64,000 nt of DNA from Escherichia coli (GTDB taxonomy: Bacteria > Pseudomonadota > Gammaproteobacteria > Enterobacterales > Enterobacteriaceae), in the NCBI RefSeq assembly GCF_050920415.1, contig NZ_CP169309.1, one strand, 5' to 3'. The position numbers and the translations under genes are program-made. Below are positions 5,621-52,955 of the stretch, in pieces. The stretch's first letter is position 1; every line of letters begins with the position of its first letter. The notes under the pieces were generated by a model, which was not told the DNA's origin, did no database searches, and worked only from the letters and a program-made list of their open reading frames with translations.

Positions 5621-5753
5621 TACCACAGCAAATCCCCCTGATTTAGCGATAAAAGCTCTCTGGATTGCGCCCCCTGGAAGTCGGGCGCATAATTAGTGTG
5701 CTTATCTTTTCTTCTTATGTTCACCGCGCCTGGCGCACCAACAGCGGATTGCT

Positions 5754-6980
5754 ATGTCACCCTGTGAAAATGACACCCCTATAAACTGGAAACGAAACCT
5801 GATCGTCGCCTGGCTAGGCTGTTTTCTTACCGGTGCCGCCTTCAGCCTGGTAATGCCCTTCTTACCCCTCTACGTTGAGCAGCTTGGCGTTACCGGCCAC
5901 TCCGCCTTGAATATGTGGTCCGGTATTGTCTTCAGCATTACATTTTTATTTTCTGCCATCGCCTCACCGTTTTGGGGTGGGCTTGCCGACCGTAAAGGCC
6001 GAAAACTCATGCTATTACGCTCTGCCCTCGGCATGGGCATCGTGATGGTGTTGATGGGGCTGGCACAAAATATCTGGCAGTTTTTGATCCTGCGGGCGCT
6101 GCTTGGTTTGCTTGGCGGATTTGTTCCCAACGCTAACGCACTGATCGCCACACAAGTACCGCGTAATAAAAGCGGCTGGGCGCTGGGTACGCTCTCCACA
6201 GGCGGCGTTAGCGGCGCGTTGCTCGGCCCAATGGCTGGTGGTTTGCTTGCCGATAGCTACGGCTTACGTCCGGTATTCTTTATTACCGCCAGTGTGCTGA
6301 TACTTTGCTTTTTCGTCACCCTGTTTTGCATCCGAGAAAAATTCCAGCCAGTCAGCAAAAAAGAGATGCTGCATATGCGGGAAGTGGTGACATCACTTAA
6401 AAACCCGAAACTGGTACTCAGCCTGTTTGTCACCACGTTAATCATCCAGGTGGCGACGGGTTCAATTGCCCCTATTCTGACGCTGTATGTCCGCGAACTG
6501 GCGGGTAACGTCAGTAATGTCGCCTTTATCAGCGGCATGATCGCCTCGGTGCCAGGCGTGGCTGCTCTGCTGAGTGCACCACGACTCGGCAAACTTGGCG
6601 ATCGAATCGGCCCCGAAAAGATCCTGATTACGGCGCTGATCTTTTCTGTACTGCTGTTGATCCCAATGTCTTATGTTCAGACGCCATTGCAACTTGGGAT
6701 TTTACGTTTTTTGCTCGGTGCCGCGGATGGTGCACTACTCCCCGCCGTACAGACACTGTTGGTTTACAACTCGAGCAACCAAATCGCCGGGCGTATCTTC
6801 AGCTATAACCAATCGTTTCGTGATATTGGCAACGTTACCGGACCATTGATGGGAGCAGCGATTTCAGCGAACTACGGTTTCAGAGCGGTATTCCTCGTCA
6901 CCGCTGGCGTAGTGTTATTCAACGCCGTCTATTCATGGAACAGTCTGCGCCGTCGTCGGATACCCCAGGTATCGAACTGA
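5754..6980 (+). CDS. mdtG: MFS multidrug efflux transporter MdtG
   Basis: 408 aa multi-pass hydrophobic ORF; recognised as MdtG. Confidence 0.9.
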
Positions 6981-7062
6981 TTTTTCGCCTTTCATACTTG
7001 CAAAAGCGGAGAATCAGCTATCCTTTTCCCTGAAACCTCATCAACTCAAAGGGAGAATCGTG

Positions 7063-7437
7063 ATGACCATGTACGCAACGCTTGAAGAAGCCATTGACGC
7101 TGCACGCGAAGAATTTCTTGCAGACAACCCCGGCATCGACGCCGAAGACGCGAATGTGCAACAGTTCAATGCCCAAAAATACGTTTTGCAGGACGGCGAC
7201 ATCATGTGGCAAGTTGAGTTTTTTGCCGACGAAGGGGAAGAAGGTGAATGTTTACCCATGCTTAGCGGTGAAGCCGCGCAAAGTGTCTTTGACGGCGACT
7301 ATGATGAGATAGAGATCCGCCAGGAGTGGCAGGAAGAGAATACATTACATGAATGGGACGAGGGGGAATTTCAGCTTGAGCCACCGCTGGATACGGAAGA
7401 AGGACGGGCAGCTGCTGATGAGTGGGATGAACGCTAA
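7063..7437 (+). CDS. msyB: acidic protein MsyB
   Basis: ORF 7060..7437; highly acidic 124 aa product; recognised as MsyB. Confidence 0.9.
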   Translation: MTMYATLEEAIDAAREEFLADNPGIDAEDANVQQFNAQKYVLQDGDIMWQVEFFADEGEEGECLPMLSGEAAQSVFDGDYDEIEIRQEWQEENTLHEWDEGEFQLEPPLDTEEGRAAADEWDER

Positions 7438-7665
7438 TTACTCATACGGGCCATGATGAATGTCGATCGGCAGCAGTAAAGTATCAAAAACCAGGGAGAA
7501 TGGCAGATCAAGGATCGTGACATAACGCCAGGCGGAGTCACGCACATCCCATTGCACACCAGGATAATATTGGTTGCCATGCCCCTGCCCCGGTATAGTG
7601 CGACTAATAATACTGCCGCAGCCACTCAACAAGGTCACCATAATACTGACCATGATGAAACGCAT
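7438..7665 (-). CDS. yceK: lipoprotein YceK
   Basis: 75 aa ORF with lipobox LLSGC. Confidence 0.85.
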   Translation of the reverse strand: MRFIMVSIMVTLLSGCGSIISRTIPGQGHGNQYYPGVQWDVRDSAWRYVTILDLPFSLVFDTLLLPIDIHHGPYE

Positions 7666-7729
7666 TTGATACCTCTCCCGTAAAAAAATACCGGCATAAC
7701 GCCGGTATTTTTATTGGCTCGTTGTTTTT

Positions 7730-7826
7730 GCCGGATGCAGCGTGACCGCCTTGTCCGACCTACAAAATATTGCAAAATCAATACATCGTAGAACGTTGTA
7801 GGCCTGATAAGCGTAGCGCATCAGGC
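7730..7826. repeat. REP/BIME palindromic elements between yceK and opgH
   Basis: gccggatgcagcgtgaccgccttgtccgacctac and gtaggcctgataagcgtagcgcatcaggcc match the E. coli REP consensus. Confidence 0.7.
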
Positions 7827-7835
7827 CACTACGTT

Positions 7836-12018
<4,183 letters not shown>

Positions 12019-50648: not shown

Positions 50649-51263
<615 letters not shown>

Positions 51264-51283: not shown

Positions 51284-51511
51284 ATGCCAACTCAAGAAGC
51301 GAAAGCTCATCACGTCGGTGAATGGGCATCTCTGCGCAATACGTCGCCGGAAATAGCCGAGGCCATTTTCGAAGTCGCCGGGTACGACGAAAAAATGGCG
51401 GAAAAGATTTGGGAAGAAGGTAGCGATGAAGTGTTAGTCAAAGCCTTTGCTAAGACCGATAAAGATTCGCTTTTTTGGGGCGAACAGACCATCGAACGTA
51501 AAAACGTTTAA
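51284..51511 (+). CDS. yccJ: small protein YccJ
   Basis: 75 aa ORF, 20 nt after wrbA; recognised as YccJ. Confidence 0.9.
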
Positions 51512-51518
51512 TCCTGAA

Positions 51519-51547
51519 CCTCCCCCGTGGTGAACGGGGGAGTTTTC
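51519..51547. terminator. intrinsic terminator after yccJ
   Basis: ctcccccgt ggtgaa acgggggag stem-loop followed by TTTTCG. Confidence 0.65.
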
Positions 51548-51888
51548 GATTATTCATTGACCAACGTCTCATGCCCTGTTATTACTGTGAGATATTCAAT
51601 CACGTTATCAAATAAAAAAATCGATATCATTGCGGTAAGCTTGTTATTGATTATAAATATGGGTAATAAGCGATATCCAGCATGAATTTGATTGTACAGA
51701 GTATTTCCTATATAGCCATTGGTTAAATCTTGAAGATAAGATACCTCCGGCTGAAAAATCCATCCCGGCAATGAAGGATGTGATATTTTCGTAATTCTCT
51801 TGCAGAATAAACAACCCTGGATACGCTCTGAATACAAGGAAATTTTCCAATAAATTATTTATTCATCAATACTCCCCGGCGAGGATCA

Positions 51889-52407
51889 TCAAAATATCTC
51901 ATTATCTTTTAAAACTGCCCAGCCCGTTATAACGGACGTTATCTGGCGCACGCTGAAGTGGGCATGATACTCACTTTCATTAAAATGCTCGACATGATTT
52001 GCTAATCGCTTAGCTAGATAATTGACGTTCAGTCTGTGCCAAATTTTTAGCGAAAAATAGCAAATTTCAAGCCGGGAATTTATCAAAGCATCCTCATTTA
52101 CTTCACCATGAACAATAAAGTCACGCATAAACTGCAGGTGTTTAATTAATAAAATCCATTCACTTTCAGTAAGATAGTTTTTCCCACGCAGATTATAATA
52201 CAGAGATTTGATTAATGGGATCTTCTGCTTATGGCGCTTTGACCGCGCTGAGCACAATATTTGTTCTATCAGGCCAAGCGTCCCTTTCTGACGCAACCAG
52301 CACCGGAGTTCAGACTGCGCGCTAATGCCGCGAGCCACCGACAAATGTATTTGGGTAAGCAATGCGTATAAACCTAATAAAAACGCGTCGTGATAATACC
52401 GCTTCAT
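51889..52407 (-). CDS. hypothetical protein, 172 aa, downstream gene of an AT-rich two-gene islet; no family recognised
   Basis: ORF-track ORF; start preceded by aaggtgg 3 nt upstream and only 12 nt after the stop of the upstream ORF. Confidence 0.55.
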   Translation of the reverse strand: MKRYYHDAFLLGLYALLTQIHLSVARGISAQSELRCWLRQKGTLGLIEQILCSARSKRHKQKIPLIKSLYYNLRGKNYLTESEWILLIKHLQFMRDFIVHGEVNEDALINSRLEICYFSLKIWHRLNVNYLAKRLANHVEHFNESEYHAHFSVRQITSVITGWAVLKDNEIF

Positions 52408-52419
52408 TACCCACCTTTG

Positions 52420-52788
52420 TTATCGTAATTTTTTAAACAAATAATCATATAAAATTTCGGCAATGAATTCTGCATGTTCACGTCGCACAATGACATTCAT
52501 AACGTAATATTGCGCAGCAATTTCATTGATAAAATGTTCAGGCAGTATGAATACGCGTGCATAAGCCGAGTATATTTCCAGTATTTCATTTGAGATGTTT
52601 TCAAGATCAACGCAATAATTTGTCACATCATAAAAAAGATTAGCGTATTTTTTATTAATTATGCTAAGGCATATAAATGGGGCATTTAATTTTTCACACA
52701 ATTGCCAGTGCGTTCTTTCATTTTCTCCCTTCCATGTATACTTCATTTTGTCAGCCATCCTTTGATTTACGCGTCTGAAGTTTACCAC
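52420..52788 (-). CDS. hypothetical protein, 108-122 aa depending on start, upstream gene of the AT-rich islet; no family recognised
   Basis: ORF-track ORF; alternative in-frame starts at 52758 (MADK..) and 52746 (MKYTWKG..) with aaagga upstream. Confidence 0.5.
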   Translation of the reverse strand: MVNFRRVNQRMADKMKYTWKGENERTHWQLCEKLNAPFICLSIINKKYANLFYDVTNYCVDLENISNEILEIYSAYARVFILPEHFINEIAAQYYVMNVIVRREHAEFIAEILYDYLFKKLR

Positions 52789-52955
52789 TGTGTCTGGGGT
52801 AAACCATGCGTTCTATGGTAAAAATTATACGAGATGTGGCGCTGCGTAATATTCTGCTCCCTCAATATATTTCTGGTGAATATGTTCCAGGTTAATTGGG
52901 AAGATCTGCATGTGATCTTCCCAATTTTATGACTACAAAATGTCAATAGCCGGGT

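Follow-up and report, generated by a model that had tools for sequence, protein, structure and literature searches.

The convergent genes yccJ and agp of Escherichia coli are separated by an AT-rich islet in the 64,000-nucleotide stretch of contig NZ_CP169309.1 (assembly GCF_050920415.1) that was analysed here and is called the window below. This islet probably represents an 'orphan' cluster, without a toxin, of three genes for immunity to polymorphic toxins, designated by their open reading frames ORF-A, ORF-B and ORF-C, the last of which is already inactivated in the window strain. In Rhs and related polymorphic toxins, the gene directly after the C-terminal toxin domain occupies the position of the cognate immunity gene. 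Relatives of ORF-A and ORF-B, and one remote relative of ORF-C, are found at the immunity position after toxins, and the toxin is absent from the islet, which together point to an orphan immunity cluster; from this assignment, made on sequence data, we infer the expression of the genes, the binding of toxins and the protection of the cell. The islet and its genes are as follows.

51550..52955, minus strand: the whole islet, 1,406 bp, AT-rich and missing from K-12 (alignment with the empty site, GC profile)
52420..52746, minus strand: ORF-B, 108 amino acids (aa), WP_000878101.1 (PGAP annotation, ratio of nonsynonymous to synonymous substitutions (dN/dS), toxin adjacency of relatives)
51889..52407, minus strand: ORF-A, 172 aa, WP_000833427.1 (PGAP annotation, dN/dS, relatives found with HMMER, toxin adjacency of relatives)
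51550..51866, minus strand: ORF-C, a frameshifted pseudogene whose intact form encodes 100-105 aa, with indels relative to the alleles of E. coli N3 and N96

The three genes are co-oriented on the minus strand in the order ORF-B, ORF-A, ORF-C and share the orientation of agp. On this strand, PGAP lists two 'hypothetical proteins', WP_000833427.1 and WP_000878101.1, and the original prediction for this locus, made from the sequence alone, likewise described two co-oriented minus-strand genes; both exist, but the third, decayed gene had been missed. ORF-C was recognised by aligning the islet from three strains. Its local hidden Markov model (HMM) matches in the window are split across two frames, and the gene is intact elsewhere, with 104 aa in N3 (locus L003) and 100 aa in a divergent E. 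coli lineage (L008-L010). N3 shows the converse pattern to the window, ORF-C being intact and ORF-A frameshifted. Spacers of 12 and 6 nt lie between the genes of the intact L008 allele, which indicates an operon. None of the three products has a significant match in Pfam, NCBIfam, PADLOC, PHROGs or PDB sequences, in agreement with the earlier statement that neither of the two products then noticed resembles a known domain family.

Toxin neighbours of the islet gene families

A word-indexed search of 5.8 billion proteins returned copies of ORF-A, ORF-B and ORF-C from Escherichia only. More distant relatives came from an exhaustive profile search of 1.84 billion representatives, from tblastn on plasmids and from a metagenome scan. 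The profile search, performed with HMMER, yielded 12 further matches to ORF-A, ten of which are full-length or partial relatives; the E-values of the distant relatives range from 5e-34 to 2e-4. In five independent settings, a relative lies directly downstream of, and co-oriented with, an Rhs toxin domain (L011-13 with protein P0013, L014-16 with P0014, L020 with P0017, L025 of Proteus mirabilis, and L031), and its start abuts or overlaps the stop of a PAAR-Rhs or orphan Rhs gene. The L031 relative encodes 171 aa with 30% identity to ORF-A (E 3e-19); its orphan Rhs module is carried by E. coli CREC-544 and by another 23 genomes of that species. Other relatives are orphans within immunity or Rhs arrays.

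Examination of the Rhs proteins in the five settings revealed one domain of about 115 aa following DPxGL in all of them, 'VRH(H/Y)TS...GVHVEVEPFGDP...YVEF(D/E)...GPRNTA', and the motif 'VRH(H/Y)TS..G..GVH(V/I)E(V/I).PFGD..YVEF(D/E)' is present in 5/5 paired toxins. One immunity family therefore tracks one toxin family, which is the canonical toxin-immunity arrangement. By these sequence comparisons, ORF-A is most likely an orphan member of an all-helical immunity family for the 'VRH(H/Y)TS...GVHVEVEPFGDP' Rhs C-terminal toxin. The AlphaFold2 (AF2) model of ORF-A is all-helical, with a pLDDT of 61 that makes it too weak to help.

Membership of the paired toxin in Tox-ART-HYD1 (PF15633) was judged by a significant Pfam match together with the catalytic signature H, [RK], [FY], [DE]. 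One of the three toxin tails matches the Pfam model, at an i-E-value of 4e-4 to 1.2e-3 and over model positions 1-76 of 97. The toxin has no NCBIfam match, and its profile found no PDB chain. With a weak Pfam match in one of three sequences, the assignment as an ADP-ribosyltransferase is tentative.

Several details of the loci with ORF-A relatives were recorded in passing. In P. mirabilis L025 (NZ_OL790811.1, 7569-8480), the C-terminal toxin domain and the ORF-A-family gene form one 303-codon ORF; the toxin stop has apparently been lost or frameshifted, and the upstream 1,295-aa Rhs protein is in a different frame. Two 4-Mb P. mirabilis records that PLSDB files as plasmids are clearly chromosomes. 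Downstream of the pair of Rhs and ORF-A-type genes in L011 (CP019986.1), positions 5676-8795 hold an orphan Rhs fragment with a tail of the Scabin-like/pertussis-S1-type ADP-ribosyltransferases. The same array further contains several small ORFs, a Tox-HNH-EHHH fragment and a phage-integrase fragment, and is typical of orphan toxin/immunity arrays.

For ORF-B, tblastn detected a 54%-identical homologue on the Phytobacter plasmid pTMTA97303 (L024, NZ_AP028044.1), and the metagenome scan added seven loci with homologues of 52-54% identity. In these eight non-Escherichia loci (L024, L039-L045), which comprise at least three sequence types, the ATG of the homologue is located 3 nt past the stop of one Rhs C-terminal (Rhs-CT) toxin. 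This toxin is a C-terminal domain of about 90 aa, 'RKCSSSRKP...HVTDYKIKD', which in L024 comes after an Rhs fragment ending in '...IDPLGL', and it has no Pfam, NCBIfam or PDB match. The homologues lie within arrays of further orphan Rhs-CT modules; in L024, the orphan toxin/immunity modules around the homologue include AHH with Imm43 and a TNT-toxin fragment. Judged from its homologues, ORF-B is most likely an orphan member of the immunity family for this unclassified Rhs C-terminal toxin. Its AF2 model (pLDDT 48) is unusable, and a scan of representative genomes found no relatives of either ORF-B or ORF-C. ORF-B was also considered as a remnant of the cognate toxin of ORF-A, and this candidate was rejected for lack of any similarity. 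As a side observation, the Rhs fragment at 6844-7998 of L024, 384 codons with the complete C-terminal toxin domain at 7720-7998, is missing from the PLSDB gene table.

The case for ORF-C is weaker than those for ORF-A and ORF-B. Weak tblastn matches led to genes on Streptomyces plasmids, and hhalign of ORF-C against this Streptomyces family gave 96.3% probability (E 1.5e-9) over 90 columns, a remote homology. One of the five Streptomyces relatives comes 12 nt downstream of the gene for a 'polymorphic toxin-type HINT domain' protein, a second has SMI1/KNR4 as its neighbour, and the neighbours of the other three are uninformative. It is plausible from this similarity and context that ORF-C belongs to a polymorphic-toxin immunity family.

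The toxins themselves were sought in the Escherichia loci. Using the three toxin tails and the Rhs cores as queries, tblastn gave no significant match in either the 64-kb window or six further islet loci, and the ORF inventory of the yccJ-agp interval contains no toxin gene or toxin-CT fragment. No relative of ORF-B or ORF-C occurs near the distant relatives of ORF-A; this lack of co-occurrence suggests that the three genes are independent modules that have been brought together.

Two small adjacent co-transcribed genes might instead form a type II toxin-antitoxin (TA) or abortive-infection (Abi) pair, with a HEPN-like toxin encoded by ORF-A and an antitoxin by ORF-B, or with the roles exchanged. 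The string 'RDFIVH' of ORF-A fits the HEPN pattern Rx4-6H, and Foldseek with the ORF-A model returned uncharacterised family members followed by matches to DUF86 and DUF4145, which are not significant (E 0.7-2.4). However, relatives of ORF-A and ORF-B never co-occur outside Escherichia, where each pairs with its own Rhs toxin, and neither has a PADLOC, Pfam or NCBIfam match to TA or Abi families. A HEPN RNase was rejected for ORF-A on residue conservation: the R and H of 'RDFIVH' are not conserved, and the invariant residues of the family are E83, R125, E140 and H141. This explanation is largely refuted already, and we consider it very improbable.

An islet that is AT-rich, rare, accessory and unannotated could also encode a novel anti-phage defence or another undescribed accessory system, and the original prediction had named it the best candidate in the window for an undescribed system. 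That ranking has to be given up, as all three genes, ORF-C by remote homology, fall into families found at the immunity position after Rhs or HINT toxins. The relatives lie consistently in polymorphic-toxin loci and not in defence islands. Furthermore, the products lack enzymatic or sensor domains, PADLOC returned zero matches at E <= 1, PHROGs gave no match, and no similarity was found in phage or plasmid DNA collections. We give such a system hardly any credence, compared with a cluster of orphan immunity genes.

Site, boundaries and allelic history of the islet

The chromosomal context of the islet comprises the following features.

50667-51263, plus strand: wrbA
51284-51511, plus strand: yccJ
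51520..51542, plus strand: intrinsic terminator hairpin of yccJ, kept outside the islet; it corresponds to the common yccJ/agp terminator of K-12
51550..51554, unstranded: TTATT at the left end of the islet, with a second copy at 52956-52960, the start of the agp stop region
52825..52830, minus strand: TATAAT, a candidate -10 hexamer lying about 80 nt before the start of ORF-B, kept in the L008 allele, with no good -35
52894..52926, unstranded: perfect 13-bp inverted repeat, about 30 nt past the agp stop; RNA fold -24.3 kcal/mol, z = -4.4
52956-54197, minus strand: agp

In the K-12-derived strain MC4100, 37 bp with a single hairpin terminator for both genes separate yccJ from agp, compared with a distance of about 1.44 kb in the window. 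The insert of about 1.4 kb that had been recognised between the two genes, and described as missing in K-12, is thus real. It had been placed at 51548-52955, and pairwise alignment with the empty site of K-12 bears this out, the new DNA extending from 51550 to 52955 with the agp stop codon at 52956. Its strong AT-richness was likewise borne out. Most of 51500-52950 has a GC content of 0.31-0.40 in 200-nt windows, rising locally to 0.475 at 52200-52399, all below the values of wrbA, yccJ and agp (about 0.49-0.60). A GC content lower than that of the genome is typical of Rhs C-terminal/immunity modules.

The inverted repeat at 52894-52926 is probably a partial agp terminator located within the islet. 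Read from the sequence, the hairpin lacks a U-tract on the agp strand, which makes read-through from agp plausible. The TATAAT hexamer was picked out by eye, as an inference only; the consensus promoter scan, which requires both hexamers, did not report it. Rfam gave no match in the interval.

No integrase, recombinase, insertion sequence (IS) or tRNA gene is present in the interval, and no terminal repeat was found there except the 5-bp TTATT. A deletion across this microhomology could have given the K-12 junction, a weak indication since such a repeat may arise by chance in AT-rich DNA. The islet has no DNA match in plasmid and phage DNA collections. An origin as an integrative genomic island or other mobile element was rejected, there being no integrase, att site, long repeats or plasmid or phage DNA match. 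A literature search for the yccJ-agp locus together with immunity found no paper.

Among 5,426 complete E. coli genomes searched with BLAST, the islet occurs in five, MFDS1022581 (100%), 2013C-4282, WL297, N96 and N3, always at the yccJ-agp site. Together with its absence from K-12, this establishes the islet as an accessory module, as had been supposed. The same site is occupied in several lineages of E. coli, in E. albertii and in E. fergusonii. The cluster listing of ORF-A has a few hundred contigs with full-length forms and 261 with a truncated 119-aa form.

Comparison of the islet alleles with their flanks demonstrated considerable discordance. Between the window and E. fergusonii, identity is 98.6% for ORF-A and 95.7% for ORF-B, compared with 94.5% for wrbA and 92.8% for agp, whereas between the window and L008 it is 88.3% for ORF-A and 99.2% for wrbA. 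Such discordance points to homologous recombination at the common site or to old alleles, not to a fresh insertion. Relative to K-12, the window shows 99-100% identity in wrbA and yccJ, about 95% in agp (dS 0.23) and about 83% in yccE; the identity thus falls exactly at the islet, which suggests a recombination or haplotype boundary there. The agp allele of the window is also distant from those of the carriers N3 and L008. The horizontal acquisition originally proposed is supported insofar as the alleles disagree with their flanks and three species share the site, but it was probably not a fresh insertion, and no integrase, tRNA, IS or long repeats are present. Taken together, the sequence data fit an old polymorphic accessory locus that would have been exchanged among Escherichia lineages by homologous recombination and often lost; a recent mobile-element insertion does not fit the distribution and allele data.

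Mobile elements adjoin few islet copies. In E. albertii, an IS3-family element (HTH_Tnp_1/rve) is located between the decayed ORF-C and yccJ (L005 6928-8299, L006 5643-7014 and L007 1030-2401), and the only other case is an IS66 fragment in the metagenome contig L034.

Between allele lineages separated by dS of 0.24-0.51, dN/dS is 0.17-0.30 for ORF-A, 0.16-0.26 for ORF-B and 0.19-0.20 for ORF-C. Values of about 0.2 indicate that all three genes have been under purifying selection as proteins. They bear on another explanation, in which the genes are derived from immunity genes and the islet is now a useless remainder of an ancient Rhs/immunity array that is being lost from Escherichia. This decaying relic would account for the presence of the islet in 5/5,426 complete genomes, for at least one broken gene in every lineage examined except L008-L010, and for the truncated ORF-A being found on more contigs than any other variant listed. 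In agreement with it, no toxin was found whose immunity protein is >40% identical to ORF-A, and a clean deletion between the terminal TTATT copies could have produced the K-12 state. On the other hand, purifying selection in all three genes across deep allele lineages was long-term, the islet has been kept at the same site in three species, and ORF-A is nearly identical in E. coli and E. fergusonii although the flanks have diverged, which suggests recent spread. The long-term dN/dS values and this near-identity argue for at least recent utility of the islet, and we consider the relic explanation credible but unlikely, with a larger share of the probability than the TA/Abi and anti-phage ones.

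Several observations weigh against the assignment of the islet as an orphan immunity cluster. Immunity is usually highly specific, and the islet proteins have low identity to their toxin-paired relatives (29-37% for ORF-A to immunity proteins with an adjacent toxin, 52-54% for ORF-B to homologues with a toxin partner), so that protection by the window alleles is putative. The assignment of ORF-C combines a remote homology with one clear context, and the class of the ORF-A-paired toxin is drawn from a borderline Pfam match in one of three sequences. The consensus scan of the islet yielded no clear sigma-70 promoter. Rarity counts in the same direction, as does frequent decay: neither the window strain nor E. 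albertii has an intact ORF-C, N3 has a frameshifted ORF-A, and islet copies in human gut metagenomes are freshly disrupted, with a split ORF-A in L037 and, in L038, an ORF-B cut short after 28 codons.

Beyond agp, the window contains yccE (54489-55742, minus strand), a hypervariable gene of about 34% GC whose identity to K-12, given above, is at the nucleotide level. Its product has the strings 'PVDGDGYCLLRAI' and 'GNHYDVY', which by eye resemble the Cys/His signature of OTU-type cysteine proteases; phmmer of the product against PDB gave no match.

Relation to known immunity systems and proposed role

Orphan immunity genes are a known category, and the three families described here are, judging from the searches above, absent from current domain databases. 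Orphan rhs-CT/rhsI arrays have been described in E. coli and Salmonella (PMC3150448, PMC3967940), as have poly-immunity clusters (bioRxiv 10.64898/2026.07.13.738213). Like the orphan immunity genes of Rhs/type VI secretion system (T6SS) and contact-dependent inhibition (CDI) loci, the islet is small and AT-rich, and has co-oriented, unrelated immunity genes side by side with no cognate toxin. Classical orphan modules, however, follow a full-length rhs or cdiA gene and in most cases retain a toxin-CT fragment, whereas the islet contains neither an Rhs core nor a CT fragment. It also differs from them in lying between two housekeeping-type genes, with no T6SS or rhs locus in the window.

The Tre23/Tri23 pair of Photorhabdus laumondii, in which Tri23 inactivates the Rhs ART-HYD1 toxin Tre23 by direct contact and without reversal of the modification (PMC8661411), provides a working model for ORF-A. 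Tri23 is a small cytoplasmic protein encoded after an Rhs C-terminal domain of the ADP-ribosyltransferase type, as members of the ORF-A family may be; unlike Tre23, the toxin paired with the ORF-A family matches Tox-ART-HYD1 only weakly. Zhang et al. 2012 tied Tox-ART-HYD1 to the immunity family Imm-My6CBD (PMC3482391). That family is described as alpha+beta, whereas ORF-A is predicted to be all-helical and has no significant Pfam match. By description and predicted fold, the ORF-A family thus appears distinct from Imm-My6CBD and uncatalogued. A survey of Salmonella pathogenicity island 6 (SPI-6) reported Rhs-ART-HYD1 effectors with immunity proteins that have no recognised domain.

The islet proteins would be produced in the cytoplasm. 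Once the T6SS of a competitor had delivered a matching Rhs C-terminal toxin, the immunity protein would bind the toxin domain one-to-one and block it. The toxin neutralised by ORF-A would be a variant of the 'VRHHTS...GVHVEVEPFGDP' toxin, which is a candidate ADP-ribosyltransferase, and that neutralised by ORF-B a variant of the 'RKCSSSRKP...HVTDYKIKD' toxin.

In a wider proposal, which we put forward tentatively and hold to be less probable than the orphan immunity assignment itself, the agp-yccJ islet would be a genus-wide, recombination-exchanged interbacterial defence cassette of Escherichia. Consisting of immunity genes only, apart from rhs/T6SS loci, and kept by selection, it may protect non-producers from the Rhs toxins that other Enterobacteriaceae deploy (attackers resembling Citrobacter, Proteus or Phytobacter). 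The acquired interbacterial defence (AID) clusters of gut Bacteroidales, attributed to Ross et al. 2019, are reportedly toxin-less immunity arrays that are exchanged horizontally and protect against T6SS effectors of other strains. AID clusters are large and located on mobile elements with recombinases, and their protective effect was shown experimentally, whereas the islet has three genes, no mobility genes and is known from sequence alone. If the proposal is true, the cassette would be a proteobacterial counterpart of the Bacteroidales clusters and would add three new immunity families, one directed against an ADP-ribosyltransferase-type Rhs toxin and one against a toxin with no assigned activity.

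The rarity and frequent decay of the islet limit its general importance. Nevertheless, the analysis suggests a testable function for three families of hypothetical proteins, two of which can be linked to specific uncharacterised Rhs toxin domains. The islet would be a compact case of immunity genes set apart from a toxin/secretion locus, at a chromosomal site conserved in three Escherichia species, and as such may bear on the survival of non-armed strains in T6SS warfare in the gut.

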